Shown here piece by piece: positions 1 to 51,867 of a stretch of 64,000 bases of DNA. The first letter of the stretch is position 1. Every line of letters begins with the position of its first letter. Source of the stretch: Geosiphon pyriformis uo1 (Eukaryota > Fungi > Glomeromycota). The notes under the pieces were generated by a model, which was not told where the DNA came from, ran no database searches, and worked only from the letters and a program-made list of their open reading frames with translations. The stretch spans positions 551,684 to 615,683 of the forward strand of contig JAAOMT010000620.1 of NCBI GenBank assembly GCA_016748015.1. The letters are read 5' to 3'. The translations under genes were made by a program, and so were the position numbers.

Positions 1-286
1 GTAATTTTTGTTGAAATATATTACTGTGAATAACTCCAATTTCTAAATTATTTAATAAAATTATGAGGTAATTATTGGGGTTGTAAAAAGTAACTCGGAC
101 TTTCTTTGTTCCTTCTGGAATATAAATGTTTGGGATCAAAATATTATGTTCCAAGCAGACTTGTTTATTGGACTCAAAAATTTGTTGTGTGGTTGTTGAC
201 TTTGGGCAGGTGTAGATTTCCAGATGTTTTCCAAAGGGTGAGATAGTAATTGGTTGTGGAAGTCTGAAAATCTGGTAGGATTTGTT

Positions 287-11077: not shown

Positions 11078-11420
11078 TTTTATATTAAAACAACTTTTAT
11101 TATAGTTTTATAATAAAAAATTGGTTTTTTTAAGTTTTAAATACTTGTTATTAATATTTTAAATATGTTTAATACTTATTATTAATATCTTAAATTTTTT
11201 TATAATTTTTTATATATTTATTATTAATATTTTAAATTGGTAACAAGTCTGGTTCAAGTTTAATTTAAAGTTATATAAAAAAAAACTTCTTTCTCTCCTT
11301 TGTCTAAAAATCCCAAAAAAAAGTCTATAGTTTTTTCGAAAAAAGTTTTTTACCATTCAGTATGATAAATCAAAACCATTTTTTGATTACAAGGCTACTG
11401 TTGGCTCTGTTATTGCTATT

Positions 11421-16200: not shown

Positions 16201-17037
16201 AACTTTTTGGCAGGTGTGGTTCATATTTTTTCTGGGTGTAATTTGTCTTTGGATGGCTCTCTGGCTGGTGCTTTTTGTCTTCAGTGTGGTACTTCTATGT
16301 CTTTGGTACTCAGTAAGACAATTTTCTCCAAATGTGTTTCCTTCCTTAGGCATTATGGTATTGCTTTCATAGACCAGCTTTGTGACCAGAATGGCGTTGT
16401 TTTTGACTGGAAAACTTTCAAGTGTTAGAAAAGGCTGAACTCTCGTGGCCCAGTCCCCTTCTGGTTTAATCTCTTTGTGCATTTTCTTAGTGGTGTAGCT
16501 TCTCCTTTCAGTTGTTTTCCTTATAAAGGTGTTGGTGGTTCTTCTGACATCCATCAGTCTCTTGGTTCTGGTGTTATTTGTAATAATCTGTTAAGTGTAG
16601 GTGCAATAATCTGTTAAGTGTAGGTGCCACCCGTCTTTCTGTGTACACAGATGGGTCTCTGAGTAACTTGGGCACTGTTGACATGTTAGCTAGTACTGCG
16701 GTTTTCTTTGAGGACATTGATTCAGATCTGGATGTGGGGGTTTCTGGTTTGGTTTCTTCTACTTTGGCAGAGTTGTAGACCATTGCTTTAGCTCTGGAGT
16801 GTGTTCCTTCTTTTTGTTCAGTGTTACCAGACAAAATTAGAGATATCATTTAGCATGAAATTATCTCATAATTCCTATCATTAATTAGCATATATTATTG
16901 TTTCAAATTATCACTTATTACATTAGCAAAGAATGTCCGAAATTATCATTTAATTAATAACCCAAATTGTATACAATACAAATGTAACCTAATTGCGATG
17001 ATCAATCATGCAATACTCCAAACTATGTAACATTCAA

Positions 17038-17152
17038 AAGTTCGCTGAAATTTATAGAAATTTGCCAAAATAATGGATAGTTCACCGAAATATTTAATAG
17101 TTTGCAGAAATAACTTGTAGTTTGCCGAAATGTATCTTTAGTTTAGCAAAAT
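17038..17152 (+). repeat. LTR U3 array of six (TAG)TTCGCCGAAAT-like units, 20-21 bp period
   Basis: Cores at 17041, 17061, 17081, 17101, 17121 and 17142; present in all LTR copies of the family. Confidence 0.88.
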
Positions 17153-17202
17153 TGTAGAAAATAGCAAAGTTCAAGTTCATAGAATAGTGTTACAACAAGT
17201 TG

Positions 17203-17210
17203 TATAAAAG
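17203..17210 (+). promoter_or_regulatory. Putative LTR TATA box (TATAAAAG)
   Basis: TATAAAA is conserved in all A/B LTRs, lies about 50 bp downstream of the array, and is followed by AATAAA near 17288. Confidence 0.6.
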
Positions 17211-20200
17211 AAGAGCTTCTCTCTTCGAGAAAATGTATCTTACTTTAGATTTATCTTTTAAAAACTGTTCCTATACACACAAAAAGAAATAAATATCAAA
17301 TAATTTGAAAAACTAAATTCTTTAATTATTGTACTTGGAAAATCTCTAAAACCCAACTAACATTTTGAAATTGATTAGCTACCAATTTCAGTAAACTGTT
17401 AGTGACTCCAGGCCTGGATAGAAAATGTTTCTCTTGATAAAATCCTATTTTTTTTACACTTCTTTTATTTTTTATTTTTTTTCTTTTCTTATTACAATCA
17501 TTAGGATAGCCTACAGACGAGATTCCTGTAGAAGAGTTGACTTTCACAGCAAAGTAACTACACATTTTTAGTGAGCTTCCAGATGAGCAATTCCTGGGAA
17601 AGAGTTGACGTTTACTACAACGTAACTACATAAAGCAATTGGCACGGAATTGGCCATTTCACTCATAAGCCCAGCAAGTTCAAATTATAGGAGATAATTT
17701 GAAGTTAAAAATTCAGTTACTGGAGGTTCAACCACATCCAGAAAACGTAAATTCACAGCAAATAAGTATCAACAACATTACAGAAAAGAGACCAAAAACC
17801 TCCAGTAACATCAGTTAACTTGTTCTTGGAAAGCCAGATGGCTATCAATGCTTGCAGATTGGAGTCTTTATCAGTTGGTCTTGATTTCAGAAATTGTTGT
17901 TGGATTGAGTGTCATCACATTGCCAATGTTATTCATCGTAAAAATTTGAATATTAATTGGATTAAGGTTAAGGGCCATTCGGATGTTTCAAGCAACAAGC
18001 ATGCTGATGTGCTGGCTAAGAATGCTGCCCTTTCTGCCTGGCACCTGTCCCACTTGGTCAGTGAAAGATTTTTAAAGACTGGTATTAATATGGTTTCTAG
18101 TAATTCGAGGCATTTTATTTGTGATGTATTCAGGTCAATCCATCATGTGTATTGGAAGATTGGTTCTGGTTCCCAGTTTGTTCTAGATTGTTTGCGTGCT
18201 GATATTGACTGGCTGAGGTCTTCTCTGATGTGACACCCAGATTTCCACATGGCAATTGGTTTTACTAATATTCGGACAGCTGGCTTTCATACATATTTCA
18301 TGAAAGCCCTTCATCATTACTTTTCTGTTGCTATACGAAAGCGTCTGTATGATAAGGGTTATCCCAGTGTAGTTTGTTTGTTCTGTGGTGAGGTTGAAGT
18401 CTCAGACCATGTCTTTTCTTGCTCTTCTGATGTTGATAGTTGTACCAATTTGTTGAACACTTATGCAGCATTTTAGATGTGACTGTCAGTATGGCTCTGT
18501 GTAAGAGCTTTGTTTTCAGCAATTGGTATCAAGAGTCTGTTTTTGTTTACAAGAATCCTAAGATAGCAGTAGTTAATATTGTGAATTTTGTGCATAAATT
18601 TTGTCTTGCATTTTGTGATAATATCTAGCTGGTCTGTGTGAAACACCAGGCCATTATGGAGAAAAATAAGCTGATTCCATGTAATGATTTCATTCCTGTC
18701 ACTGTTTCTGGTTTTTCTACGCGGCTTTCAGCTGGGGTGATTAAGTTGTTGAGTGTTGCTGATGCACTTGGTATCAATTTTGGGTATTGTAAGTGTTGTT
18801 TGTTTTATGCAGGTGTTGAAAGCATGACATCTGTTCACATAAGTACATAGTGTTGTTTTAACTAGTCTGAGTATCTGGTCATGTATAGCAAAGGCATAAT
18901 TCATGCCTAGTTTAGATTATTTGTATGATGTATAGCACTAGGTAGCATTTGGACTCTACTCATTAAACTTTAATAAAAAAAAAAATTTTAAATTATATTT
19001 ATATTATAATTTTTTGTATATTTATTATTTTTATTTTAAATTATGTATTTATTAATAACTTTTATATATTTATTATTAATTTTTCAAGTTTTATTATTTA
19101 TTTTAATAATTATTAATTTTTATTAAGGTTTTTTAATTTGTTAAGATTTTTTTATATTTAATTTAAAATAATAATTAAATTGTACTATATTTTTTTATTT
19201 GATATAAATTTTTTTTGCATAATTTTTAAACATAAAAATCTATTAATAATATTATGTAGTTAAAAAACCAATTTGTTAATTTTAAAAACAATATAACCAG
19301 AAAAAAAAATTTCAATTTGGTTTTAAATATATATTTTAAAATAATGGTTTTTTTTAATAAAAACTAATTAATAAATCAAATTCTTAAAATTAAGTAATTA
19401 TAATTATATGTAAAAACAAAATTTTTTTTAAAATTAATAAAAATCAATTAAAATTTACTATATTAAACAATATAATTATGTATTAATTAAGATTAACTTT
19501 AATAAATATGTTTATACTACTATTATTTAAATAGAAAAAAAGATTTTTGTTTATAATTAAATTTAAATTAAATATTATAATTAATATAATTACAATAAAA
19601 TTAGGTTAAATATTAAAAAAAACAAAAAATCAATATCATATTTTTTATAAAAGAAAAAACAAACTTTAAAATAGAAACAGTATTTTAAAATAATTTTTTT
19701 TTTGGTATTTTAAAAAAATTAATAACAACAATAATAATAATAATAATAATAATTTTTTTTTGTTTTTTAACTTTTTTGTTTATTTAAACAAATATAAAAA
19801 AAGTGATAAAAAAAAATAATTTTATTATTAATTTACTATTAAAAATTTTTAAATTCTTTATAATAATAATAATTACATTAAAATTAATTTTAATTAATTA
19901 CTTAAAAAAAATCTTATTTTAAAAAAATTTTCTTAAATATTAAAACTAAAAAAAATAATATCAAAAATTAAAGTTGTAATTGTTTTATTTTTTGTTTTAA
20001 TTGTAATTATAAAAATAAAAAAAATAAAAAATTTTCAATTTATAATATTTTATATTAAAATTTAATATTTAAATTAAAAAATACACAAATAAATTAAAAA
20101 TATTCAAATTAAAAATATATTTATTAATAATAATTTATATATACAAATAAAAAATAATAATAAATTCAAAATTTTAATTGTTTATAATATATAATTAATT

Positions 20201-20258
20201 TTATAATTAAATATTTTTATTTTTTGGTTATTTATTTTATTTATTAATAATAATATGT

Positions 20259-21291
20259 GGTGTATCAGGGAATGATCGAGCCGACAGCATCACTGACACT
20301 GTGACTCTCTATAATTGGTCTCTCTCTTTTCGTGTTGATGAACATTTTTTGTTGGTGGATAATGGTATTGTGTCTAGTAATTCTAGACATTTTGTTCAAG
20401 ACGTTTTTTGTGCTGTTTGTCGGGCACGTTAGAAGGTCGGCTCCGGTTCTAAGTTTCTACCTAGAAACTTGCACTTGGATGTTGATTGGCCTAGCTCTTC
20501 CAGGGTTTGGCATCCTGAGTCGCATATGACAGCAGGTTTCACTAGCAGGCACACTGCTGATGTTTGTATTTACTTAATGAAGGCTTTGTACTATCAGCTT
20601 CCCGTGGCTGTTCGAAAGTGCATTTATAATAGATGTTACCCAAGTGTTTTGTGTCTGTATTGTGGTGAGGTGGAGGTATCTGATCATGTGTTTTCTTGTG
20701 TAATTGATAATTCAGCTCGTCGTTGGGTTTTGGAATCCTGTATGTTTTCTTGGAAGGCAATTTCTGGTCTTTTCATCTCTTCTTCTAATGTATTGCAGCT
20801 GTTGTTGATCTGTACTTCAGATTTCCTGGTGTTCTCAGCTCTTTACAAGAGTTTTGTTTTCAGAGGATGGTTTCGGGAGGCTGTTTCCGTCTTCTATGAT
20901 CTCAAGGTCATTGACATCAAGATTACTGATTTTGTATGCTTTCTTAGTGTCACTTTCAGGAATAACATTTGGTTGGTTTATGCCAAGCATTGCGCATACA
21001 TGAAAAAGAATGGCCTGATTTTGGTGGATGGCTCAATTCCTGTCTCAATTTCTGATTTGGTTTTGAGGTTCTCGGATGGTGGCATCCGTTTTGGTTTTTG
21101 CAAATCTTGTTTGTTTTTCTCAGGTATTGGTGACTTGGTGTCTGTTAATATAGATGTGTAATGTTGTCCTGACTGGCTCGAGTGGCTGGTCACGTGTAGA
21201 AAGTGCATGATTTGCACTTAGTTTAGATCATTTCTTTGATGTATAATTCTAAGTTGCATTTGAACTTTACTTGTTAAATAATAATAATAAA
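20259..21291 (+). mobile_element. 5'-truncated LINE (RNase H C-terminus, Cys/His motif, 3' tail)
   Basis: ORF 20469-21161 is homologous to about 18200-18850 (CLYCGEVEVSDHVFSC). TSD AATAATATGT at 20249-20258 and 21292-21301. Confidence 0.9.
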
Positions 21292-23484: not shown

Positions 23485-23603
23485 AACGATTGAAGGGGGG
23501 TCCATAAAGAAATAGAGTTACGTGATCTAATTGCCCAGTTATTAAAACACTTCAGTAACATATTACTTTTCATATAATCATATTGGTAGGAATACTAGTT
23601 ATC

Positions 23604-23811
<208 letters not shown>

Positions 23812-26114: not shown

Positions 26115-26384
26115 AATTTTTATGGATTCAATCTTTATAGAAATATGACAAAAAATTATGGTTCATTCGCTTTTCAAACCCAGTGATTCCCCCCGAATCA
26201 ATCTATTATATTACTGTAATAGGAAAAAAACGTGATAATCTTATAGATACTGTGAACCTAAGAAAATACTTTTACTTCAATTTCTTCTTCAAGATCTTGA
26301 GCTTCCGAACAATTCATTTTCTCAGATCTCCAAACTTAAAACCGATTGCTACAAGTTCACCCGCTATTTGATCAAGATTTCGTT

Positions 26385-29300
26385 ATGTCGAGCTCACTGC
26401 TGTTACTTCGCGGTGCAAGACCTGCTTTCAGATTTCTGAGTAAAACCCAGAATTTTTCATTTATAAAACCCCCACGATCTGGGGCTCTTGCACCGTCTTT
26501 CTTCGCGATTCGAACCAAAGTTTCCGCCGTAAACTCTTATCCAAACCCGAGCCCTGCTAATGATGTCTTTTTACAAGGCACCACTGCTGATTACATGGAT
26601 GAAATGTATCAGGCCTGGCTAAAAGATCCAAAATCTGTGCACTTATCTTGGCAAGTTTACTTTCGGAATATACAAGCTGGGGTAAGTTCGCAGCACGCTT
26701 TTCAAGCTCCACCAACACTCATACCAATCCCCATGGGAACTAGTCTCACCCCATCTGTGCAAGTTTCAAAAGAAGCACCAGATGTCACTGATTATATGAA
26801 AGTCCAGCTTTTGGTGAGAGCTTATGAAGTGAGAGGGCATCACATCGCCAAATTGGATCCACTTGGTATTCTTAATGCTGATCTTGATCCTTCTTCGCCC
26901 AGTGAATTGGATCCAGGATATTATGGTTTTAGTGAACGTGATTATGAAAGGACTTTTTCATTGGGACCTGGTATCTTACCTGGTTTTGCAAGGGTTAGTC
27001 CAAAAATGACCTTACGTGAAATAGTGGAGCGGTGCAAACAAATCTACTGTAAGTTAATTCACTTTTTTTTTGTAAAACCTTACCATATCACCATAGTCAA
27101 TAATCAAATTTCTGGAAATTTGAATACACTCAAGATTTCGAATGAGTTAAGGTTGCTTTCAGTGATGTCGTGAAAAGTGTGCTTAATAAATTAAAATTAA
27201 ATGAAAAAATATTCTTATCCGGACAATTCAATATTACTCGATCAAAAATTATAGCCAATATCAGTAACCTATAGTTCCACACATCTTTCTAGACATCGTC
27301 TAAATCTTTTCAAATTCAAAGACCAAATGCAAGTTTGCCTCTTTCTTGAACTTAAAATTTCTAGGTGGTACTATCGGCACAGAGTATATACATATTCCCG
27401 ATCGTGCCCAATGCGACTGGATTCGGGAAAAAATTGAAATTCCACAACCATTCAATTACACAAAGGAAGAAAAACATATGATTTTGGATCGCTTAATATG
27501 GAGTGATTCCTTTGAAAGGTTCGTTGCACAGAAATACCCTAACGAGAAAAGGTTCGGACTGGAAGGATGTGAGAGCCTGATTCCTGGTATGAAAGCTTTG
27601 GTAGGCTAAAGAAAATTATTTTATGTTATTTTTTCAAATTAAAACTAATCCATTTTTTATCTATGCCGATCAATTTTAACCTATTTCTTTAACATTTTCA
27701 GATTGATCGTTCCGTCGATTTGGGCATCGAATCAATTGTGTTGGGAATGCCACATCGGGGACGTTTAAACGTGTTAAGCAATGTCATTCGAAGGCCAAAC
27801 GAATCAGTTTTTTGTGACTTTCGTGGGACGATCGAGCCTGGTGAAGAAGGTTCTGGTGATGTTAAATATCATTTGGGTATGAACTTTGATCGACCAACAC
27901 CATCCGGGAAACTAGTTCACCTATCCCTTGCTGCTAATCCTTCTCACTTGGAAGCCGTGGATCCAGTTGTACTTGGTAAAACGCGAGCAATCCAGTTTTA
28001 TATGAATGATGAAAAGGAAAGACATCGCGCTATGGCTCTTTTGCTTCACGGTGATGCTGCCTTTTCCGCTCAAGGGGTCGTTTACGAAACAATGGGCTTT
28101 CATGATCTTCCAAACTATACCACTGGTGGAACCGTTCATATTGTAGTTAATAATCAAATTGGTTTTACAACAGATCCTCGATTCTCCCGTTCAACTCCAT
28201 ACTGCTCCGACATTGCCAAGATGGTAAACGCACCGATATTCCATGTGAATGGTGACGATGTTGAAGCTGTTAATTTCGTATGCCAACTTGCTGCTCAATG
28301 GAGACAAATATTCAAAAAGGATGTTGTAATTGACATTGTTTGCTATCGTAAACATGGTCACAATGAAGTTGATCAACCCAGCTTCACCCACCCAAGAATG
28401 TACAAGCAAATTAGTAAACAAAAACCCGTTCTCGACAAGTATGTAGAAAAACTAGTGGAAGATGGTACATTTACTCAAGAAGAAATCTTGGAGCATAGAC
28501 GATGGATTTGGAATACTCTAGAAGATAGCTATGCGAAAAGCAAAGACTACCAACCTACTAGTCATGAATGGCTATCGAGTTCTTGGCATGGTAAGTTTTT
28601 TAATTTTCGAAAATTGAAGAAACATTTATATTATTAACCACCTGATTTCCTTTATAGGGTTTAAGTCACCAAAGGAAATAGCAGAGGAGACCTTAGAAAC
28701 AAGAAACACCGGTGCCTCCATTGAGTCTCTTTCTCATGTTGGCGAAATTATTAGCTCATATCCAAAAAATTTCCATGTTCACCCTGCTCTTGCAAGGATT
28801 TTGGGTACTCGTGCTAAAGCAGTCTCAGAAGGGAAAAATATTGACTGGTCAACTGCTGAAGGTCTTGCTTTTGGATCTTTGCTTCTTGAAAATTATCATG
28901 TACGCCTTTCTGGTCAAGATGTAGAACGTGGCACATTCTCTCAGCGCCATGCTGTTCTTCATGATCAAGAAAATGAATTTCAATATGTCCCATTAAACGA
29001 TCTTGGAGCTGGACAAGCGCATTTCACTGTTTGCAATTCATCTTTATCTGAATATGGAATCCTAGGTTTTGAGCTAGGGTACTCCCTAGTCAGTCCTAAT
29101 GCCCTGGTTATCTGGGAAGCGCAATTTGGAGATTTCGCAAATAATGCACAATGTATAATTGACCAATTCATTGCTTCTGGGGAAAAAAAATGGCTTCAAC
29201 GTAACGGTTTGGTGATGCTCTTGCCTCATGGTTATGACGGACAAGGCCCTGAACATTCTAGCGGACGCATCGAACGTTTTCTACAATTATGCGACGATCA

Positions 29301-30152
29301 TCCATACATATTCCCTTCACCTGAAAAGATGGCACGTCAACACCAGGATTGTAACATGCAAGTTGTATACTGTTCCACCCCTGCTAATTATTTCCATGTC
29401 TTGCGAAGGCAGATGCATCGTGATTTCAGGAAACCTGTAAGCCTATCAAATCTATTTCTATTGTTTAATTCAAGTTATTTTAAAAAACATAACAAATGTA
29501 TTTTTTATTCCTTTTAGCTTATTGTTTTCACGTCCAAAAGTCTACTCCGTCATCCTTTAGCTCGATCAAATATTTCTGAAATGGTTCTTGGGACCAAATT
29601 CCAACGCTTTATACCTGAGCCTCATCCTGATTCCCTTGCGCCTCCGGAGGAAATCACTCGCCATATTCTCTGTACTGGACAAGTGTATTATGCACTACTT
29701 AAAGCTCGCGAACAGAACAATATAAATAATGTGGCTATTTCACGCCTGGAACAGATAAACCCTTTTCCATATGATTTGGTTGCAGAACATCTTGACAAAT
29801 ACCCCAACTCCGAAATTATATGGGCCCAAGAAGAGCCTCTTAATGCGGGCGCTTTCACTTATATTGCCCCTAGGATTCGTACTGTTGGAAATCAAACAAA
29901 ACATCATAAAGGTAAAGTACCTGATCAAATCTCTAGATTTTCCCACAGCATCAAGATCTTGATAAATAACTTTGCTTTTGTCATTTTCAAGGCAAAGCTG
30001 CGCAGCCCGCTACACGGCCCCCAGCCGCTTCACCGTCTACCGGTAATAAGAAGGTCCATATTCAAGAAGAACAAGATGTGTTATCTCAAGCTTTGAAAGG
30101 CAAAGTCCTAAAGGCGCAGAAGGTTGTTTCTGGTGTGCCTATTTGGGAATAA
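26385..30152 (+). CDS. KGD1: 2-oxoglutarate dehydrogenase E1, mitochondrial, about 1040 aa; exons 26385-27048, 27365-27600, 27702-28590, 28658-29436, 29518-29911, 29992-30152
   Basis: Motifs [71 protein letters not shown]. Five GT-AG introns keep the frame. Arg/Ser/Leu-rich N-terminal presequence. Confidence 0.97.
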
Positions 30153-37790: not shown

Positions 37791-39367
37791 TATTATTCAT
37801 ATAAAAAGAAATAGCAGAAAAAAATAAAAAAAACATATTATAAAATAGACTAATAAGAGAATAATATTCAATAAATAAACACATTTTTAAAAAATTACAG
37901 AATATTTCCAGAAATAAGCATATTTTTAAAAAGTAGCATAAAAAAAAATAAAAATATGTAAGATCCTATATAATACAAATTATGTATATATAGCAAGAAT
38001 ATGAAAATAATAACTAAAAAAAAACAGTAATTACAAAATAGTAGTTAAAAATAAGTAATTATTCAATATCTTTTTTATTAAAAGATGGTTTTCTATAACT
38101 TGAAGTAAAATTATATTCATATTAATAAAAATATTTATTACTATTCAATTTATGTTGTTATTGCTTAATTAAAAAATATTAATCATTTTTATATTATTAA
38201 TAATTTAGATTGATAAAATTTAATATTTAACTATACTGGACCAATAGCTTTTAATCATGGCTATTAATAAAATACCAATTTTTTATTTTTATTTTTTTAT
38301 TTTTATTTTTTTGTTGTTTACTAATTAATTAAGAGATTAAATATTAAGTAATTAACATCAAAAATAACCTGGTAAAAGACTTGAAAAACAAGTATAAAAA
38401 ACTTAAAGATAGCTTACTAGAAAGACATAACTGCCAGAATAAACTGGTTATTATGCTAAAAACAGAAATTAGAAAAAAACCATTACTTAAATCTCTGTTT
38501 ATTATACAAAAAACTTAACCAAAATCTTTAAACTCTAAAACCTTTAGAAATCACTATTATTAACAGCTATTAAATATTAAATTATAGATTTGTTATTTGT
38601 TTTAATACTCCAAATAATTACTTATAACATTTAATGCTTTTTGTAAAATATAATCTAGCAGAAAATTAGTATCAATATTAATTATCTGAAAAAATAACAT
38701 ACTAAAAAACAACAAAAAAAAATTACTTAGAATTTACAAAATTTTTATTTCAGTATTACTAAATACATATGAAATTAACAAGTAATTACTAACCAGCAGA
38801 ATTAATCTTTAACTTCTATGTTAACAAAAAAATTATATATTATTTAAGAGACCAAGAAAATTCAAAAACTACTATCAGAAATTTTTATACAGAACTACTA
38901 CAACATACCAGCTTTTCACAAAATTATAGTTTTACTTTAATTCTTATAAAGATTAATCATAAAATTAAAAGATATATTTAGCAAAAATTTTCAATCATAT
39001 TCATAAACAAAGACAAAAACAGAATACAAATATCAGCAAATATACTTAAACCAATACAACCATCTAACTAAAAAAAACCCAGAGTTGTGTCTTTATTACA
39101 TCCATTTTACTATTATATACTAAGAAGTACAATCTATATATTATTAGAATCTGTATTATTGTTAACTGCAAAGACACTTATAACTTAAGTTTTATTTTAA
39201 AATAATAATAAAAAAACCAAATTATTAGAAACATATAGCAATTATTTCAAAAAATTTAAATCATAATTAGCAATACCATCAGAACTTTAATTACTATTAT
39301 CTTAACCAAATTTCGAATCTATTAGTAATTAGACAAACACTAATTTAGAAGAAAAAAAAGACAGCAC

Positions 39368-40328
39368 TGTTACCAGTAGAATTTTAGCTATTAATTAGCA
39401 TGAAATTACCCTTATAATTCCTATAATTAATTAGTATATTAATATCATTTCAAATTATCATTTATTATTTAATCAATTATCACATATCACGATTCAATTA
39501 AAATAGTCTAATTAGAATAACAGAAAGTAGGATGATCAAATTACACAATACTCTGAACTTAGTAACATTCTAAAATTCGCCGAAATTTACAGAAATCCAC
39601 CGAAATTATGAATAGTTCACCCAAATTGATCAATAGTTCAGCAAAATAACTTGTAGTTCATCAAAATGTATCTTTAGTTTGCCAAAATTTGAGCAAAGAG
39701 AAAAAATGCAAGTTCATAGACTAGTACTACAACAAGTTGTATAAAAAAAGAGCTTTTCTCTTCAAAAAAATATATCTTACTTTAGATTTATCACTTAAAA
39801 CCATTTCTACACACACAAAAAGAAATAAATATCAAATAATTTGAAAAAACCAAATTCTTTAATTATTGCACTTGGAAAATCCCCAAAACCCAACTAATGT
39901 TTTGAAATTAATTAGCTACCAATTTCAGTAAACTGTTAGTAACTCCAGGCCTGGATAAAAAACGTTTCCCTTAATAAAATCCTATTTTTTTTACATTTTT
40001 TTTTTTTCTTATTACAATCATTAGAATAGCCTACAGACAAGATTCCTATAGAAGAGTTGACTTTTACAGCAAAATAACTACACATTTTTAGTGAGCTTCC
40101 AGACAAGCAATTCCTGGGAAAGAGTTGATGTTTACTACAACATAACTACATAAAGTAACTGACAAGGAATTGGCCATTTTACTTATAAGCCCAGCAAGTT
40201 CAAATTATAGAAGATAATTTGAAGATAAATTCAGTTATTGGAGGCTCAACTACTTCTAAAAAACGTGAATTTGCAACCAACAGACATTTACAATATTCAA
40301 AAAAAGAGACCAAAAACCTCCGGTAACA
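39368..40328 (+). repeat. 5' LTR (subtype B)
   Basis: TGTTACC...GGTAACA terminal inverted repeat; direct repeat of 49213-50164. Confidence 0.96.
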
Positions 40329-40330
40329 TT

Positions 40331-40343
40331 TGGTGCTCTCCCA
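40331..40343 (+). promoter_or_regulatory. Primer binding site (TGGTGCTCTCCCA)
   Basis: TGG two nt after the LTR; a similar site lies at 59126. Primer tRNA not determined (3' end ...GAGCACCA, compatible with Ile(UAU)- or Thr-type tRNAs). Confidence 0.75.
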
Positions 40344-40373
40344 CGGAAATAACACAGCAACAACAAATTCAAA

Positions 40374-43300
40374 GTGGCGACCACACCAAACACAGCAACT
40401 CTAGAGTATTACCAGTCAATTTACACCCACTGCAAGCAAAGATTCAACATTCCAGACGGAATTGAAGTTGTCAAGAAATCAGTATACCAATACATTGAAA
40501 ACTGCATCAACAATTATCTTTTTGGAAACTACAACATTTCAGAAGTTAAAAGCAACCTCTACAATAATTTAGTGCACTATTCACAATTGGGAACAGAAAA
40601 CCTAAACAGTGAAACACTTGCTACCTACTTCCAAGAACTCAATTTTAACATTATTGAGTATTGTGAAAAAAAATACCCAGTACAGTCTAAATACTCTTTT
40701 GACTTTGAATCAGAGACAGAAACAAGCAACAAAGGCAAACAAAGATTGAAGCAATACTCAAGAACCACTCCAAACACTCCAACACTACAAAAGACAACTG
40801 CCAAACACTTGCAAACACCTGAACAAGGAACCAGTGTCAAATTACCACTTTCTATTACACTATTTCTAATTTCACTTGTTCAACCACAAACACCAAGTTC
40901 ACCACTTAACTGTTTCTCCAGACCAGAAGATTTTCAGTCACCTAAAAATTCTACTCAACAATAGAAACCAATATTAACAAGTGCCAATATCATTGATTAC
41001 TTACAGGAAAACGAAAGTAATCACTCAAAAAGCTTGAAAAGTGAAAAAACTGAATCAGAACCAGAAGAAATTACAGAAAATAAAAAAAAAATGGCAACTG
41101 CTTACATTGCAAAAATCCCAGAATACACTGGTAAAAACAATGATACCAGTCTTCAAGAATGGCTTGACAAAGTTCAAAAAGCAGGAAATGCAAATGGTTG
41201 GATTGCAGCAAGAATGCTTAAAGCAATTTTCTACTTTCTCCAAGAAACAGCAGAAGAATGGTTTGAAAACTTAGAAAAACCATTTGAAAACTGACAAGCA
41301 TTCAAAGATGCTTTTCTACAACAATTCACTGACAACAATACCTCTATCACTCTCAGAAACTGCTTTTGCAATATCAAACAAGAAACATCTGAAACTGTTA
41401 TGACCTATCTTGGAAGATTTAACAAACTTCTCAGACAAATCCGACAATTGGAAACCAATAACTACTATTCTGATGCTCAAATTTTGGATCAGTTTATAGC
41501 AGAGTTAAAAGACAAACTGATTAAGAAAGTCCGCCCACATGCTCCAGCAGACTTAGCAACTGCTATTAGACATGCAAAGAGCTATGAAATGGCAATGGAA
41601 GAAGCAAATCACACCAAGCTTGTAAACCTTGCAATTGAAGAAACCAGCTCAGCAGCTAAAGAGAAGATAGACCAATTCACAAAAAAGGTTGAAAGCTACT
41701 TTACAAACCAACAACCACAAAGATATCAACCCCCACAATGACGCAACCAAAACAATTTTAGATCACCATCCAACAACCAACCTCAAAATTGTCATTATTG
41801 TGGAATTCCAGGACACTGGAAACAAGATTGTAGGAAATTACAAAGAAACCAACAAAACAGGAGTAATCAACATTACTTTTCATCACAACAATCCTATTAC
41901 CAATCTCTACTATCAGTCTATTATTCACTAAAACCACAAAATCAAAACAGTTACTATTCACCAGCTCCACAACCAATGCAGCAACAATATCAGCAATTTT
42001 ACCCAATTCAGCCATATCAAACACCACCCACTCAACAATATCAAGTACCAGCAAGAAGATTGGTTCAACATAAACAATTCACATCCCAAAATCAACTGCA
42101 GAGTAACCACAACAGAATCAATTCAAATAACCAGTTGGTTTCCCGAAATTCTGGTCAGCAAAGACCCAATCACTATCACACTCAATCCAGTTATCTTACA
42201 ATACCAGAGAAATCGGATTTTCAACAAACTGCACTTTCTGAAGGTGAAGTTGCAGTACTAAGATCAAACCCTTCCAACCACATTATTCCACCAGTTCAAA
42301 TTGCCCAAAATACCAATTTGTCAGATATATTTCCATTTGAATTTGAAGCAAATAAATCACCATTTCTGCTTAGTAATGCAGCAGTCAATAAACAGAAAGC
42401 AATTACTGCTATGTACACAGAAGCTACAGTAAAAGGAAAACTCATTCACTTAATCTTAGATAGTGGATCGGCTGGAAGTATCATCACTTACCAGCTGATG
42501 CAACAACTCAAACAAAATGTAGACAGACCAGCTCAAACAGTTATTGTCACAGCTGATAATATAAAGAAGACTCCAGTAGAAGAAATTGATGATTTCCTCT
42601 TTTCAATTGATAAAATTACCATTCCAGTTAAAGTTCTTGTTATAAATGCATCCTAATACCAAGCCCTAGTCGGAAATAATTGGCTTCTCAAGGCCAAGCA
42701 AACCTACAATATATCATAGTACCTGCAACCTGTAGTATCTTTAACAAATGATCAGAAAAAGCCCCAGTATTTGAATTTGAAGAGAAGAAAGAAATGCCAC
42801 TTACTAAAACCTACATGGCTCTTGGATCAACATCCAATTGGGCTGAAGAAACAAAACAGGAGATTTTTGAAGAATCAAGAGGATGGAAGAAAGTTAGATA
42901 TTCTACACCAGAACCATGGAAACAACCACCCTATATTCCACTTAAATACAAAGATTGCAACAAAAAACTTTCATCAATGGGAGCATGTATTTCTCCAGAA
43001 GAGAAATATGAAACTTGTACCTATTACTTTTGCAAAGCATGTCATAGAGAACGATTTGAATCTCCAAAAAAAAGTAGAAAATGGGACAATACACCTTGCC
43101 TTACATGTGGAAAAATGCTATCAGAAGAATGCAATTGGATTGATGTAGCAATGAGAAGAAGAGTATGTGATCAAACCTGTCAATATGCTCTATCAATTTC
43201 GGAAAAAGTCAGAAGAAGAATACCATTTGATGCAGCATACAACAGTGCTCTCAATAAACTTTACCACTACCCTCATAATGCCGAAATAATTTTTGATTTA

Positions 43301-46300
43301 GCAATGGCATTGATCAATGAAGCCACCCAAGAAGATGTCCACCAAATGAAAGAAGTTGAATATATTGAGCATATCATGGAATTAGCTGGATTTGATTATG
43401 AAGATGAAGTAGAAACCTACCACCAAATTGCAAGCCACACATATCCGACCAAAGAAGCTCAAATTCAATGATTAGAGCAAATAAACATTCAATTGTGTAA
43501 AAAATGTGTTATGCCTTATAATGACCAATGGTGTTTAGAATGTTATGCTGTTACCGGAGGTTTTTGGTCTCTTTTTAGCTCTTGTATGTTTGTTGTAATG
43601 CTGTTAATTCACGACTATGAAAAGTGTTTGAACCTCTGATAACTGAATTTTATCTTCAAATTATCTCCTATAATTTGAACTGCTGGGCTTATAAGTGGAA
43701 TGGCCAATTCTGTGCCAGTTGCTTTGTGTAGTTATGTTGTAATAAATGTCAACTCTTTCCCAGGAATTGCTTGTCTGGAAGCTCACTAAAAATATGTAGT
43801 TATTTTGCTGTAAAAGTCAACTTTTTTACAGGAATCTTGTCTGTAGGCTACCCTAATGATTATAATAAGAAAATAAAAAAAAGAAAATAAAAGAAATGTA
43901 AAAGAAATAGAATTCTGTCAAGGAAAACGTTTTCTATTCAGGCCTGAAGTTACTAATAGTTTTACTGAAATTGGTAGCTAATCAATTTCAAAATGTTAGT
44001 TGGGTTTTGGGGATTTTCTAAGTGCAATAATTAAAGAATTTGGTTTTTTCGAATTATTTGATATTTATTTCTTTTTGTGTGTATAGAAATGGTTCTAAGT
44101 AATAAATCTAAAGTAAGATATATTTTCTTGAAGAGAGAAGCTTTTCTTTTATACAACTTGTTGTAACACTATTCCATGGACTTGAACTTTGCTCTTTTCT
44201 ACAATTTCACTGAACTAAAGATACATTTTGGTGAACTACAAGTTATTTCTGCAAACTATTAGATATTTCAGTGAACTATCAATTATTTTGGCAAATTTCT
44301 ACAAATTTCGGCAAACTTTTGAATGTTACATATTTCGGGGTGTTGCATGATTGATCATTGCAATTAGGTTACATTTGTGTTATGTATAAATTGGGTTATT
44401 AATTAAATGATAGTTTCGGACATTTTGCTAATGTAATAAGTGATAATTTGAAATGATAATATATGTTAAATAATGATAGGAATTATAAAAATAATTTCAT
44501 GCTAAATAATATCTTTAATTTCGTCTGGTAACAATGCTCTTAGCATTCCTCTGCCAGATAAAAATAATGAAAATGAAATCGAATTTGGAGTATCTGAACT
44601 AATAGAAAAACTACCAACCACCCCCATCTATCTTTTTGAAAAGCAACCATCTCTACAACTTAAATATTTTGACAATCATGGCCAAAAAATCAGACCAGAA
44701 AAAGCACACAAAATTGATGCTAGATATGATCTAAGATACCCAGGAAAAAATATTTTGGTTCTTCAACCAAAGTCCTTGACAAAAATCAATCTCAAAATTA
44801 CTCTTGAAATTCTACCAGGAGCAATGGTTCAAATTGCCTCCAGATCATCATTGTCAAGCAAAGGAATCAATATTAGAGGAGGAGTTATAGATGCAGAATA
44901 CACTGGAGACATTACCATCATGTTACAAAATGAGACAGACAAACCATTCAAAATTGAACATGCTAAAAAAATTGCTCAAGCAATTTAATTACCCTTAATC
45001 AACATTTTGGGATTACAATTAGTAAACAACAGAGAACAATTGGAAAAAAGTGAAAGAGGAATTCAAGGTTTTGGTTCAACTGGATGATTTACAGTTCCAG
45101 TAAACATAGCTCTTAATACACAAAATGAATCTTACCAGATTCTTCAACTTCTCCAGCCAATTACCATTTCACCTTTTGGAAAACATCACAAAATTTACAC
45201 TTGCTCAAAACCCATCACTACACAACAAATCTTTGAATCCAATGAACAAATCTGTTTGAAGCATGAAATTTCAATTCCAAACGTTTATATTCCCAAAGGA
45301 ATGAAAAAATTTTGAGTTACATTCTACAACCTCAATAATTACCTTATTGTCTTATTAAACAAACTAGAGATTGGAATCATACACAGCAATATTTTTCAAG
45401 ATGAAAACCCTTAAATTGTCTCTAATTTCATCGAAATTGTAAGACACACTCTACTTCCAAATTCAAATATCATTCCCACTACTGAAAACTATCACTTTTT
45501 AGAAGAAAAACTCTCTCAAATTAACATGGGTTCCTTAGAATCTTAACAACAAAGACAATTGAAACAATTGATAGCTGAATTTACAGATATATTTGCAAAA
45601 GACAACAATGACTTGGGAAAAACAGACATTGTTCAACATCAAATCCATACAGAAGATGCTCCACCAAAACATCAACAAGCTTATCGAGTGCCACCTGCCA
45701 GCCACCAATTCATTAGAGAAGAGGTCCAAAGAATGCTCAATAATGGATTGATTCAACCATCAAGAAGTTTTTGGGCCTCACCAGTAGTTTTAGTTAAAAA
45801 GAAAAACGGAAAAATCAGATTCTGTGTTAATTATAGACAACTGAATAGTGTTACAATTGGAGATGCCTATCTTCTTCCAAGAATTGATGACATGCTAGAT
45901 GCTCTAGGAAAAGCCAAGTTTTTCTCAACTTTAGACTTGGAAAGTGAATATTGGCAAGTCAAAATGGACCCAAAAGACTGACCCAAAACAGCATTTACCA
46001 TCCAGGGAGAAAACTATAAGTTTAATGTTATGCCTTTTGGATTCTGCAATGCACCAGCAACATTCCAGTGACTCATGGATGTTGTATATGAAGGACTCTT
46101 GTGGCAATCAGTAGTTGTCTATCTTGATAATACTGATGTATACTCACCAAGCCTTAAAACTCATTTCATTCACCTGCAAGAAGTTTTTCAATAATTATAA
46201 AAAGCAGAATTAAAGTTAAACATTGAGAAATGTCACTTTGGAAAAACAAGCTTGATCTTTCTTGGACACATAGTTAGTAAAGATGGAGTCAAACCAAATT

Positions 46301-46932
46301 CAAGAACAATTAGTGTTGTCAAAAACTTTCAAACTCCCAGAAATACTACAGAACTAAGAGGATTTGTAGGATTAGCCTCTTACTATCGAAAATTCATAAA
46401 AGGATTCTCAAAAATTGCCAAACCACTCAATTATCTTATCAACAAAAATGTACCATACAAATGGACTGAAGAACAACAAAAAGCTTTTAAAACTCTCAAA
46501 ACAAAATTGACAACAGCCCCAGTTCTTGCTTATCCAGACTTCAACAAACAATTCCAATTAGCTACTGATGCTTTACACATAGCATTTGGTGCCATCTTAT
46601 CACAATTAGATAAAAATGACCAGGAACAAGTTATTGTCTATGCCAGCAGAACTCTTAAGCCAACAGAACTCAAATATGGCTCAACTGAATTGGAAGCCAC
46701 TGCAGTCATCTGGGCTCTCAAACACTTTCAACAATACCTGAAGAATGGAAAAGAATTTGACATAATAACTAACAATATTGGCCTCAAATAGCTTAATAAA
46801 AAAAAAACTGAACAAAGTGCCAAACAGTCTCAATGGAATAACTTCCTAGCAGACTACAGATACATTGTACATCACAAACCAGAAAAACTACACACCAATG
46901 TTGATAGCTTTTCAAGAATGAAACAATATTAA
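40374..46932 (+). pseudogene. Polyprotein: N-terminal extension, gag, protease, Cys-rich domain, dUTPase, RT, RNase H
   Basis: Gag ATG at 41091; CHYCGIPGHWKQDC; ILDSGSAGS; dUTPase about 44690-45085; RT WASPVVLV, RFCVNYRQLN, MPFG, VYLDN; RNase H LATDA, ELEA. Interrupted by stops, a small deletion near 42700 and a solo LTR. Confidence 0.93.
43549..44533 (-). mobile_element. Solo LTR (subtype A) inserted antisense into copy 2
   Basis: TSD ATGC at 43545-43548 and 44534-44537; removing the LTR restores ECYALSIPL. Confidence 0.97.
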
Positions 46933-46999
46933 TACCAACATCAACACCAACAAAACACCAACAAACTTAACAGCAAAACAAACAACAAGATCAACAACA

Positions 47000-48332
47000 A
47001 TGGATCCAGAAAACTACAACAACATCAAAAACTATTTGGAGACTCTCACCATGTCGGAAAATTGGTCTCCAAGTGAAAAACATTGATTACAACACCAATT
47101 CAAACAATATTTTATACACCATAACAAAATATATTACAAAAATCATAAAAACCCAAACCAACCACTCAGATTAGTACAGAAAAATGAAAAAGAAACAATT
47201 CTATACAACATGTACACAGATTTTTCTTCAGCACACTTGGGAAGAGATGGAACAATTCAAAAAACTCTTGAACATTATTTTTGGCCTTACATGCAAAAAA
47301 ACATTCGACAATATGTAGAATCTTGTGATAGTTGTCAAAGAAGAAGAAGAACTTGCCCCACAGAACCTTTAAATCCAATCAAAGTTGGACAACCTTTTGA
47401 CAGAGTTGGAATTAATTTAGTTGGACCATTACCTATCACAACCCAAGGAAACCGTTATATTGGTTGCAGTGGATTATCTTACTAAATGGCCTGAAGCTAA
47501 AGTCATTCAAAGAGCAGATGCAAAATCAGTAGCAAATTTCATCTATGAAGACATTATCTGTAGACATGGATGCCCAATTGAACTCTTATCTGATCAAGGA
47601 ACATATTTTGTGAACAACTTGATACAAGAAATTTGTAAATGGTTCAATGTCAAAAAACCTCTATCATTACCTTATTACCCTCAAACAAATAGACTTGTAG
47701 AACATTTCAACAGAACATTGTGTGAATCTCTAGCCAAAGTCTCAACAGACTTTGAGCAGGAATGGGATATCTTTATTCCATTAGTGTTACTAGCATACAG
47801 AATGCTAAAACAAGATACTATAAAACACACACCATTTGATCTTATTTATGGAAGGACAGCAACATTACCAATTAATTTCACAGTGGAAACATACCCAGTG
47901 CAATCAATCAATAAAGAATACTTTCAAGAAACACTCCAAAGAAGAGCCTACACTCTTTTTAGTACACTGAAAGGAAAAAGAAGAATAGCAGCAACTCATA
48001 TTGAACATTCCCAAGCTCAACAAAAAGAAAGACATGACAACAAATTACCACCTATTACCAACGAATTTAAAGTTGGAAATAAAGTTCTCTTACACAGAAC
48101 TAAGACTGAAAAACAATGAAGTGGGAAATTTGAAAACAAATGGGATGGACCATTTTATATTCACGAAATTCTAGGCAATGAATCATACAAGTTAAGACTT
48201 GATGACAAAATACTAGCAAAAGTTGCACATGGAGACAGATTGAAACACTATCATTCCAGAAACAATCTTGAACCATTAATTCCACAAATTGATACACATT
48301 CTCTTTTAATTAATCCTGAAGATATTTCCTGA
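47000..48332 (+). pseudogene. Integrase (H2C2 zinc finger, DDE core, GPF C-terminus; no chromodomain)
   Basis: MDPENY start; AHLG...CDSCQ; GINLVGPL; LSDQG; YYPQTNRLVEHFN; KWDGPFYI. Frameshift near 47460. Confidence 0.92.
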
Positions 48333-48842
48333 AATTTAAAACCAATAATTATAATAGAACAACAACCAAACTTGAACACTTAAATTTTACAATAATTCTC
48401 TAATAAAAACACAAAGACAAAAATAGTAAATAAATTACAAAAACACCCAAACCCAAAAACAAATAAAAACTCCATATCCCAAAAATAATTTTTTTTATTC
48501 TCTCTTTTCATAATTAGTCAATTTTATCATGATTATTCTCCGAAATATTCAACAAATATCCCAAAAGTTAATGTTAGCCTTGAAAACACTTCCTGACTTA
48601 TTCATAATGATTAATAGAAGTTAAATTAATTACATGCAGAAAAAAACCACAGCTCCAGTAGCAAATCATTGACAGAACTATTACTCCTATAGAAGAAAAA
48701 CAAGAAGTCACTCTGAAAATAGATTACCAAGACTTTTGAAGTAAGCACTGGAAGAAAATCTTTTAATTGCTCTTATTGACATTCCACCAAATGCTACAAT
48801 ACAACAAAAACTTCTACTATTTCTCAATAAACAGAACAATAA

Positions 48843-49232
48843 ACACCTATCTATAAATACTTTCACATTGGAAAGACACTTTATAAACAAAAAATAGAAC
48901 TTGAAGCAACAAATCTCATTCCTGAAGCTATACAAAAACAAATCCATAATGAATTCAAAACAGCAGCTAGACCAACAAACACTCACTACAAACTTAGAGC
49001 AGCTTTTAGACTTTATGATTTGTTTAATACTTGTGAAAATGTTCTACAAAATCCAATACTGCAACCAATGAAAATCCAATACATTGGCAAACTCACAGAA
49101 CTGAAATTTCAACAATTTTCAGACCAGATTACTTCAATTATTTTGGATTACTATCTCAATATTACAGATAGTGCTTGGACTTCGACAGAGCTCAGTCTTG
49201 AGGAGGAAATTATGTTATCAGTAGAATTTTAG
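48843..49232 (+). pseudogene. Extra 3' ORF of unknown function (probably extends upstream towards 48530)
   Basis: 129 stop-free codons (TPIYKYFHIGKTLY...AAFRLYDLF...IGKLTELKF...EEEIMLSVEF*) ending inside the 3' LTR. Confidence 0.6.
49200..49209 (+). promoter_or_regulatory. Polypurine tract
   Basis: GAGGAGGAAA three nt before the 3' LTR. Confidence 0.8.
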
Positions 49233-50164
49233 CTATTAATTAGCATGAAATTACCCTTATAATTCCTATAATTAATTAGTATATTAATATCATTTCAAAT
49301 TATCATTTATTATTTAATTAATTATTACATATTACGATTCAATTAAAATAATCTAATTAGTATAACAAAAAGTAGGATAATCAAATTACACAATACTCTG
49401 AACTTAGTAATATTCTAAAATTCGCCGAAATTATGAATAATTCACCCAAATTAATCAATAGTTTGGCGAAATAACTTGTAGTTCATCAAAATGTATCTTT
49501 AGTTTGCTGAAATTTGAGCAAAAAGAAAAAGTCCAAGTTCATAGACTAGTACTATAACAAGTTGTATAAAAGAAGAGCTTTTCTCTTCAAAAAAATGTAT
49601 CTTACTTTAGATTTATCACTTAGAATCATTCTTACATACACAAAAAGAAATAAATATCAAATAATTTAAAAAAACCAAATTTTTTAATTATTGCACTTGG
49701 AAATCCCCAAAACCCAACTAACGTTTTGAAATTGATTAGCTACCAATTTCAGTAAACTGTTAGTGACTCTAGGCCTGGATAGAAAACGTTTCCCTTGATA
49801 AAATCCTATTTCTTTTACATTTCTTTTATTTTTTTTTTCTTTTCTTATTACAATTATTAGGGTAGCCTATAGATGAGATTTCTGTAGAAGAGTTGACTTT
49901 CACAGCAAAGTAACTACACATTTTTAGTGAGCTTCCAGACAAGCAATTCCTGGGAAAAAGTTGACATTTATTACAACGTAACTACATAAAGTAACTGGCA
50001 AAAAATTGGCCATTTTACTTATAAGCCCAGCAAGTTCAAATTATAGAAGATAATTTGAAGATAAATTCAGTTATTGGAGGCTCAACTACTTCTAAAAAAC
50101 GTGAATTTGCAACCAACAGACATTTACAATATTCAAAAAAAGAGACCAAAAACCTTCAGTAACA
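49213..50164 (+). repeat. 3' LTR (subtype B)
   Basis: Direct repeat of the 5' LTR; lacks one 20-bp array unit. Confidence 0.96.
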
Positions 50165-51867
50165 GCACTCAAAAAATTAATAATTAAATTTTGATTCCAA
50201 ATAATCCAAAAATTCGAATTCCAATTGTTTAAATTTACCAAAACCTAAACAATCCAAATTCCACTTCTATTTTTTAGCAAAACTTAATTCCAGTTACTCA
50301 GATCTATTTACTAATTGTACCAATAACTGCTTTTCAATTATTCTAACAACTTTTACCAATGGCATATGCACTTATTACCAAATTAAAAAAATTTACAAGT
50401 GTAGAAAACAATGCTTAAGCATGACTAAATAATGTGACAAAAATTATTACAGCCAACAAATAAGATAACACTAGAGTTTTGCAAGCAATTTTTTATTTCT
50501 TACAAGATATTACCAACTTATAATACTAAAATTTTGTAAACAAATCTCAAGATTTTAATATATTCAAAACTGTGTTTCTATAGTATTTTCAACAATTATA
50601 ATAGTATTAATTAACTGTTAATTAGTTTTACCACAATTAAGTAAGATAATAATAAAGCAGTCATTACTTATTTAGAATACTTCTATAAAAATCTATATCA
50701 AATTCAAGCAATCAATGCTAACTACTTTATAGTATTACAGATCTTAAATCAATTTATTTATAAATTATACAGTAGTTTGTTATAATAAGTACATTCATTA
50801 CATTCAAACATACTTTAAGACACAGTTATTTATATCAAAAATTTTGAATTGGTTAAACTCAAAACCAATTACATTCAAACCATAAATCTAATAATAAATA
50901 GATTATTTAAATTAGATACCAAATTAAAACAATTTGGAAAATCAATCAATCAGAAAATCAAGAAATACTTAGTTAATAATACAGCAATTTATTAATTTTT
51001 TCAATATTGTAATAATTAAAAAAATTCAAATTGGTTTTAGAATCAGTCATGTTTATTATTATTATCATCAAATTAACTATGACAATAAGAGATGTATCTT
51101 TGTTATTACTGTAGTAAACAAGAACATCTAAAAATGAATTATAAGACAAGATTAAATAACCAATAATTAAAAAATTAATATTAAAACCCCAATCACAGAT
51201 TTCAAACCCAAAATTATGTCAATAATTTGTTATTAGAACACTATTAATCCTATTATGTACCAATAATGTCCCAATTAATATATTCATTTTTTATTTATTA
51301 AACTTTAATACTAGTAATTTATCAAGTTTTACAACTATTAGTTATTTATTAATTCCAACAAATTCAAGTATCATTCCAAATTTTAATTTAATTACCAACT
51401 AAAAACCAAAGACCAAAAATTATTTACATCCAACAAAATTGGAGATCAGTAATAATTATGCATTAATCAATTTTCAGTGTATTAAACCAGTTATTAAAAT
51501 TATGTTCAAAAATTTCAGAAAATAAATACACCTAAAACCCAAATTCTTAGAACTATTTAAGTCTTTTGGTAATCTCAAAATCACAATATCTAATTTACTA
51601 GAAATCAACAAATCACTTACTAATAACATTCTATCAATAATTATCACCAAAGATAAATTATTAGTCACTATATTTTTTTTTGAGTTAAAAAACTCAAAAA
51701 ACACATTACTATTTAGTGAAATTGTTTTTGATATTAAATTAATTACTACAATATATATTGAAACCAAAATCAATGGCCAATTTATCAAACTAAGCTTTAA
51801 TAGTAGTTTAATCAGCAATATTATTATATAATAACTCATAAACCAATTAAATTGTTGAATTGATCAC

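Follow-up and report, generated by a model that had tools for sequence, protein, structure and literature searches.

A Ty3/Gypsy lineage in Geosiphon pyriformis and soil metagenomes with a stand-alone integrase gene and a third reading frame across the polypurine tract

How does a retrotransposon make its integrase when the Pol frame stops before the integrase begins? The question is raised by an element bounded by long terminal repeats (LTRs) in a 64,000-nt stretch of the Geosiphon pyriformis uo1 genome (contig JAAOMT010000620.1, positions 551,684–615,683 of the forward strand, GenBank assembly GCA_016748015.1), referred to here as the window. The element, copy A (39368–50164), is a decayed copy of a G. 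pyriformis Ty3/Gypsy family of a broad non-chromoviral lineage; the window also holds copy B (58171 to the window end) and copy C (11–4550, minus strand). The frame for Gag, PR (the protease), RT (the reverse transcriptase), and RNase H ends in a stop codon, the integrase follows as a separate gene, and an open reading frame (ORF3) lies over the polypurine tract (PPT). This layout is real, conserved, and unusual, and the sequences incline us slightly toward translation of the integrase by reinitiation on the full-length RNA. Ty3/Gypsy elements and retroviruses usually release integrase from Pol by cleavage, an arrangement that fixes its amount and delivers it into the particle; a lineage with free integrase must solve dosage and delivery otherwise.

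The RT and RNase H domains (45547–46932, plus strand; PF00078, PF17919, and PF17917) end at the Pol stop codon, TAA 46930–46932. A 67-nt linker follows (46933–46999, plus strand) that is CAA-rich, ATG-free, and unstructured, and loose ends and skips of contigs are concentrated in it. The integrase frame (47000–48332, plus strand) starts at its own ATG at 47000 in the +1 frame, as originally predicted, and encodes H2C2, a DDE core, and an SH3-like C-terminus shortly past which it ends. The Pfam match to SH3_Tf2-1 is weak and below the cut-off. A protein search with the integrase core, in which lengths of 383–2000 aa were allowed, gave 174 matches, of which 120 were listed. All 120 listed homologues are 383–438 aa long and carry integrase domains only; 115 start with Met, 112 start in one alignment column, and the median identity is 48%. 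Pfam identified no chromodomain in the window or for the 120 listed homologues. Fungal names among the 120 are two from Rhizophagus irregularis and one from Entrophospora candida, and the rest are metagenomic. The clusters of three stand-alone integrases (P0144, P0176, and P0183) are filed under the names of Acidobacteria and Chloroflexi metagenome-assembled genomes, and these labels likely reflect misbinned eukaryotic, likely fungal, contigs.

Soil-metagenome DNA was scanned from seeds on integrase-core motifs, and 80 of 519 relatives were kept as loci. Because the seeds were core motifs, the sample is not biased on the Pol–integrase junction. Both the RNase H end and the integrase ATG could be scored at 47 of the 80 loci, and Pol stops first in all 47. 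The other 33 were unscorable (9 with the start off the contig, 21 with no RNase H end, and 3 with no ATG near the model start). With the window included, frame offsets are distributed 16, 15, and 17 over the three frames, and gaps between the Pol stop and the integrase ATG span −8 to 206 nt, with a single outlier of 1026 nt. Given three frames and such a wide range of gaps, no single frameshift or readthrough explains the junctions. Trees were built by quick search and hold the window and its relatives only, with no GyDB, Repbase, or Dfam reference elements. The integrase tree pairs the window with L002 as its sister (support 99) and shows overlapped and spaced junctions intermixed among closely related elements. 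By these comparisons the separate integrase is conserved far beyond the Geosiphon genome; among viral contigs, one distant locus only was found. A P-loop-like domain lies just upstream of the integrase at L067 (2–784). A small ORF is present in the approximately 200-nt linkers of L012 and L013 (31 and 61 codons), and in L013 it overlaps the integrase start.

ORF3 (48529–49232, plus strand, about 230 codons from a putative start) is broken in copy A by stops and by a frameshift near 48840. It crosses the PPT (49200–49212, plus strand, placed by sequence) and ends at 49232 inside the 3' LTR, the overlap that had been predicted, and in many relatives it ends in or just beyond the PPT. Some retroviral accessory genes also overlap U3. 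The downstream ORFs of relatives form one family: over 124 aa the window ORF3 is 32% identical to the intact L002 protein, and 48831–49139 is still matched (E 2.9e-5) by a profile from which both were left out. The N-terminal half matches Geosiphon gene models and not L002 (E 1.3), and the C-terminal part is a helical domain found lineage-wide. Of 37 loci that extend 600 nt or more beyond the integrase, 20 have ORF3, and 19 of those 20 were profile seeds. A search with the profile gave 32 matches, two of them named as R. irregularis, where they are unnamed proteins, and 28 of 30 matches in an Atlas search are unnamed eukaryotic clusters. Nothing credible was found by Pfam or PDB sequence searches, and DUF1016_N was not accepted (E 0.11, in 1 of 24 members only). 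AlphaFold2 modeled ORF3 as an all-helical protein of 148 residues with a predicted local distance difference test (pLDDT) score of 92. This is a compact, confidently modeled family without annotation.

A subgroup of relatives carries a three-stem RNA directly 5' of the integrase ATG. When 13 such relatives are aligned (L022:96–133, L027, L028, L030, L035, L036, L042, L053, L054, L060, L071, L048, and L023), 100% of cells are paired in 13 of 13 rows, and four pairs have two-sided changes, far above slid controls; the structure was drawn by eye from the sequences on which the pairs were then counted. Most Pol frames in this subgroup with the RNase H end on the contig extend 188–360 residues past RNase H with no Pfam match. 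Rfam returned no match for the window element and nothing credible for 14 relative loci or the three-stem RNA. Cis-acting RNA signals had been predicted for copy A, and candidate signals are present as structured RNA in its U5 (described below) and, in this subgroup of relatives, upstream of the integrase ATG.

For the integrase itself, termination–reinitiation on the genomic RNA is a reading to which we give about an even chance. Ribosomes would terminate at the Pol stop, scan the AUG-poor linker, and reinitiate at the next AUG, that of the integrase. In a family without a gag/pol frameshift, this would keep the amount of integrase low compared to Gag, and free integrase would need RNA or Gag binding to enter particles. 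Junction statistics used 44 junctions after removal of three near-duplicates and an outlier, 36 of them with linkers of at least 20 nt. These 36 linkers contain 7 ATGs, compared to 41 in letter shuffles and 27.6 in dinucleotide shuffles (0 of 200), and a purine occupies −3 at 40 of the 44 integrase start codons. Gaps are at most 6 nt in 8 of 48 junctions, including ATGA and TAATG overlaps. The equivalent UAAUG and AUGA overlaps are cited for viral stop-restart (PMC10275272). Caliciviruses and influenza B (both with a TURBS, a ribosome-binding site upstream of the termination point), the fungal viruses CHV1 and HvV190S, the non-LTR element SART1, and cauliflower mosaic virus, which uses a viral transactivator, likewise have polycistronic RNAs on which a later ORF carries an AUG of its own (PMC10275272). 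No LTR retrotransposon is among the reinitiation cases named in the excerpted part of that paper. How reinitiation follows very long fungal ORFs could be studied on the dozens of natural variants that these junctions supply, from overlaps to unstructured spacers and covarying RNA.

Several observations weigh against reinitiation. The gap is at least 24 nt in 40 of 48 junctions and under 30 nt in only 9 of 48, with 67 nt in the window, so most exceed the limit of about 30 nt stated for TURBS-type reinitiation (PMC10275272). UGGGA upstream of the stop was found in only 3 of 44 junctions, which differ from TURBS systems in this and in their longer gaps. The control triplet CAT is likewise depleted in linkers (27 versus 45); the ATG deficit may therefore be partly compositional, which weakens the signal. 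For spaced junctions, an AUG-free linker suits an internal promoter or an internal ribosome entry site (IRES) equally well, and the three-stem RNA of the 13 relatives could be an IRES. ORF3 is missing from five long-gap elements, and fold searches with it gave no match that would point to its function.

The integrase, and ORF3 with it, might instead be translated from subgenomic mRNAs of their own, produced by an internal promoter or by splicing, a possible route that we rate well below reinitiation. Foamy virus Pol is made from its own mRNA, and an integrase ATG in good context after an AUG-poor linker would fit; inspection by eye also picked out TATA-like words ahead of ORF3 in some relatives, such as L025, L029, and L034, with no chance test. 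However, neither TATA nor branch-point/YAG signals are enriched in the Pol–integrase linkers, where YAG is depleted, and for overlapped junctions the RNA would have to begin within RNase H, although ATG density shows no drop over the final 500 nt of Pol. Ribosome entry within the linker, regardless of upstream translation, is unlikelier still. The fully paired three-stem RNA lies a few bases 5' of the ATG in its subgroup, and the CAA-rich, unstructured linker of the window is like the A-rich sequences that act as translation enhancers; the window element, however, lacks the three-stem motif, for which only 13 of 81 loci gave a match, and overlapped junctions have no linker in which entry could occur.

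There is very little chance that this is an ordinary Gypsy element in which decay or gene calling has produced a spurious split and spurious extra frames. Copy A is heavily mutated and has many private stops, as would be expected of such an artefact, but the split occurs at one place in all scorable relatives, Pol and integrase are long open frames in many of them, numerous relatives have an intact ORF3, which is confidently modeled, and the inserts described below show third-position bias. For the integrase split, the artefact reading is refuted by the lengths of the homologues, their common Met start column, and the 47 of 47 junctions.

A role for ORF3 can be sketched. A trans-acting regulator is likely. 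A reinitiation helper, modeled on the cauliflower mosaic virus transactivator, is a doubtful first guess; integrase packaging, RNA export, and transcription are rival roles. The sole hint toward a part in reinitiation is that all 3 short-gap elements lack ORF3 while 12 of 17 long-gap ones have it (Fisher p 0.049, with non-independent rows). In a broader and equally speculative scheme, a major lineage of mycorrhizal-fungal Gypsy elements would be polycistronic, expressing Gag-Pol, integrase, and ORF3 from one RNA; ORF3, possibly a new fold, would be the reinitiation transactivator, as in caulimoviruses, and families lacking it would overlap stop and start while others would use the three-stem RNA. 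Fragments of the family are annotated as hypothetical host proteins and ORF3 as unnamed Rhizophagus proteins, so recognition of the lineage would clean mycorrhizal genome annotation. A helix-turn-helix-like ORF occupies the place of ORF3 in L021 (6522–6941), and L023 (1506–1886) is similar.

Three coding inserts lie between PR and RT, a Cys-rich region, a dUTPase, and a spacer, all noted in the original prediction and present in one frame in copy C and in a diverged intact relative. Besides four conserved Cys pairs, which are predicted to be zinc sites, the Cys-rich insert (42878–43548, plus strand) contains a helical domain and another Cys cluster that is cut by a nested LTR. Eight Cys are preserved in 78–100% of close and diverged rows. 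The corresponding ORF (42752–43468) is 100% identical to G. pyriformis gene model G9A89_022494, and all 120 of the matches listed (of 272) are G. pyriformis hypothetical proteins. A library-wide search with it gave 237 matches; of ten distant ones looked up, nine are other G. pyriformis models and one, P0367, is from a metagenome contig. P0367 encodes PR, the Cys-rich insert, dUTPase, the spacer, and RT in one open frame, is 43% identical to a Geosiphon model over 593 aa, and is sister to the window in the RT tree (support 96), whose out-of-frame WINDOW_B row was disregarded.

The dUTPase (44680–45088, plus strand) matches PF00692 with an E value of 2.5e-16. Its motifs are decayed in copy A, and the commonest form of each of the five in gene models is intact; these five conserved motifs mark it as a putative trimeric dUTPase, which would likely limit uracil in cDNA. 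The spacer (45091–45540, plus strand, about 150 codons) precedes RT and is aligned in P0367. Its likeness to a second, degenerate dUTPase was non-significant (E 0.11). Transversions between copies A and C at codon positions 1, 2, and 3 number 7, 9, and 25 in the Cys-rich insert, 5, 0, and 24 in the dUTPase, and 2, 1, and 12 in the spacer, with 4, 3, and 13 in the protease for comparison. All three inserts are under purifying selection in this family. The Cys-rich insert was modeled with a pLDDT of 73, residues 1–70 poorly. Structure modeling and fold searches, which had been suggested with the original prediction, were run on ORF3 and the Cys-rich insert and gave no known-fold match in the PDB or, for ORF3, in viral libraries (best Z 4.8 and 5.1), nor a Foldseek match for either at E 0.001, with residues 1–70 of the Cys-rich model barely covered; this lack of a match does not show a new fold.

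No match to the three inserts was found among the results listed for the 80 relative loci. Some of these loci have other insertions between PR and RT. A different Cys motif (CWC...CxxC) is present there in L018, L019, L021, L034, L055, L072, and L078, which indicates that this interval repeatedly acquires Cys-rich inserts. NUDIX hydrolase domains, a parallel to the dUTPase, were found in L065 (between PR and RT) and L046 (1876–2886, after the integrase).

Upstream, the Gag capsid domain and a CCHC zinc knuckle (PF03732 and PF00098) occupy 41091–41840 on the plus strand, and the aspartic protease (PF13650) occupies 42420–42700 on the plus strand. An N-terminal extension (40374–41090, plus strand) is in the Gag frame, which opens past a TAA just 3' of the primer-binding site (PBS) and, as predicted, has no in-frame ATG before 41091. 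The extension likely starts at GTG 40374, which has A at −3 and G at +4. Among 22 gene models that carry the motif, 19 have Val at this codon and 3 have Met, which could be a product of G>A decay. A second subfamily has a 70% identical extension, and in two other Geosiphon families gag is preceded by a weak homologue (E 6e-4 and 0.038). A coding role is likely; the codon-position comparison of the extension used copies A and B, which are too close to each other. No homologue was identified in 81 loci. Gag N-terminal extensions with a common His/Cys motif and a Met start are present in relatives (L003:3157, L005:2998, L012:7525, L019:5971, L023:2950, and L043:4109) and do not match that of Geosiphon. 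Apart from point stops, copy C has a single frame from gag through protease, the Cys-rich insert, and dUTPase to the spacer, so that a single ORF of about 1870 codons, ending at TAA 46930–46932, is likely for the family. Four relatives (L007:2745, L012:2498, L013:853, and L020:1515) share the position of an in-frame TGA followed by CTA between PR and RT, presumably a readthrough site.

The features thus far described fall into two tiers, with the split integrase and ORF3 lineage-wide and the inserts and Gag extension family-specific, the latter in Geosiphon families plus, for the inserts, one metagenome relative. The original prediction had read the combination as the mark of a single distinct lineage with accessory proteins. 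A non-chromoviral lineage with a widely conserved separate integrase and ORF3 stands, and the accessory frames are open or conserved (inserts in P0367, ORF3 in many relatives). The features are not one bundle, however, and the combination does not serve as a lineage marker since inserts and Gag extension have no match in the 80 relative loci.

The element is flanked by the target site duplication (TSD) GCAC (39364–39367, right copy 50165–50168). Its LTRs, TGTTAC...GTAACA, are 961 bp (5' LTR, 39368–40328, plus strand) and 952 bp (3' LTR, 49213–50164, plus strand) and are 90.75% identical. All three testable insertions have 4-bp TSDs (GCAC, ATGC, and TCAG), and none extends to 5 bp, in agreement with the prediction. 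An 18-nt PBS, placed by sequence and beginning TGG, lies 2 nt past the LTR (40331–40348, plus strand); relatives have PBS-like sites beginning TGGTGC. The predicted span was not one unit. An inverted solo LTR of a sister subfamily (43549–44533, minus strand, 985 bp, TSD ATGC), missed earlier and not native to the element, is nested in and interrupts the Cys-rich region; it is 81% identical to the flanking LTRs and 88% to a solo LTR at 16822. With about 1 kb of the interval accounted for by this LTR, the native element is about 9.8 kb.

Structured LTRs had also been predicted, and this was confirmed for U5 only. A 10-bp hairpin is followed by an 11–13-bp stem that closes on the LTR end around a variable loop of about 65 nt (40199–40327, plus strand). 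Folding of U5 is more stable than that of shuffled sequences in the 5' LTR (z −3.3, 0 of 200 equally stable) and less distinctly so in the 3' LTR (z −1.65), and in five of five LTR copies the arms of both stems are preserved and the enclosed loop has diverged. Outside U5, no consistent folding signal was found across the five copies; one LTR window reached z −6.5, but its underlying fold is weak (−3.1 kcal).

The LTR pair of copy A differs by 55 transitions and 2 transversions. C>T changes by next base number 18 (A), 17 (T), 12 (G), and 8 (C), with observed/expected (O/E) ratios of 0.62 for TpA and 0.13 for CpG. Decay is by C>T/G>A deamination in all contexts. Repeat-induced point mutation (RIP) was rejected because C>T changes have no CpA bias and a TpA O/E of 0.62 is no TpA excess; this agrees with Gigaspora, where RIP signatures were undetected (10.1101/2021.03.30.436303). 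The stops and frameshifts checked in copy A are private defects. A frameshift in the integrase core near 47462 occurs in copy A only, with 25 contigs continuing differently; a deletion of about 40 nt near 42697, directly after the protease, breaks the frame and is absent from copy B; and at the stops at 40962, 41294, and 48119, respectively 99%, 98%, and 76% of contig depth reads otherwise.

The element has the TG...CA LTR ends, PBS, PPT, TSD, PR-RT-RNase H-integrase order, and RVT_1-type RT of Ty3/Gypsy elements, and Pfam domains for gag, zf-CCHC, protease, dUTPase, RT, RNase H, H2C2, and rve, which bears out the predicted domain order. It departs from the usual Ty3/Gypsy element in having integrase outside the Pol polyprotein. 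Chromoviruses generally have 5-bp TSDs. Neither a chromodomain nor a 5-bp TSD, as reported for the chromovirus SM-Tcn1 (PMC2864245), is present here. The complex-retrovirus comparison in the original prediction is useful as an analogy and no further, as no env was found, the sole 3' ORF being a helical protein of about 150–230 aa with no Pfam match, and splice signals are not enriched before the integrase. Ty3 and canonical Metaviridae share the order from LTR, PBS, and gag through integrase to PPT and LTR, and Ty3 is the best solved relative of the RT/RNase H (E 4e-30) and integrase (E 5e-51) profiles, but its RNase H and integrase are in one 1547-aa chain, whereas here integrase has a separate ORF followed by ORF3.

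Fungal Gypsy elements bearing a dUTPase in Pol (PosPlaTy3-5 of Postia, Tmt1 of Tuber, and those of Phanerochaete) are a further comparison. The dUTPase of PosPlaTy3-5 sits between PR and RT (PMC2864245), a position also cited for fungi, rotifers, and the planarian element Burro (PMC6431247). The excerpts of these two papers mention no separate integrase for such elements, and the window element differs in lacking a chromodomain and in the Cys-rich insert and spacer that flank its dUTPase. Like the window element, the CsRn1 clade has 4-bp TSDs, no chromodomain, no env, and varied gag/pol strategies (PMC2582038). Both the dUTPase position and the 4-bp TSDs are already known. In CsRn1, however, the separate ORFs are gag and pol, integrase lies within Pol, the Gag motif is CHCC, and the PBS is for tRNA-Trp (PMC2582038), whereas the window has a CCHC knuckle. 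Caenorhabditis elegans Cer1 encodes an extra non-env protein, CERV, that is needed for genomic RNA export (PMC10309623) and, in contrast to what is proposed here for ORF3, comes from a spliced mRNA. No sequence or fold link between CERV and ORF3 was found, with no direct comparison made. Neither a stand-alone Gypsy integrase nor this family was found described in the literature searched; Repbase, GyDB, Dfam, the mycorrhizal transposable element library (PMC11952901), and supplements were outside that search. A separate integrase is not mentioned in the excerpts of PMC3248453, PMC2774666, and PMC4427930.

From one DNA run, 36,061 and 28,998 short contigs matched the two halves of copy A at a likeness of at least 80%, which indicates a large family and is not a copy number. 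LTR elements account for 41.2% of the G. pyriformis genome (PMC11952901). Elsewhere in the window, decayed ORFs at 9167–21160, with a zinc knuckle (9167–10939) and an RNase H fragment (17766–18230), probably belong to another retroelement family, and a solo LTR (16822–17810, TSD TCAG) is inserted in them. An assembly gap lies inside copy C (2846–3832; 990 N in the window), and a tandem array is present at about 23541–23760 with a spacing of 9–12 nt. A host gene with a dehydrogenase E1 domain is located at 26340–30100, which we take from its sequence to be 2-oxoglutarate dehydrogenase E1.

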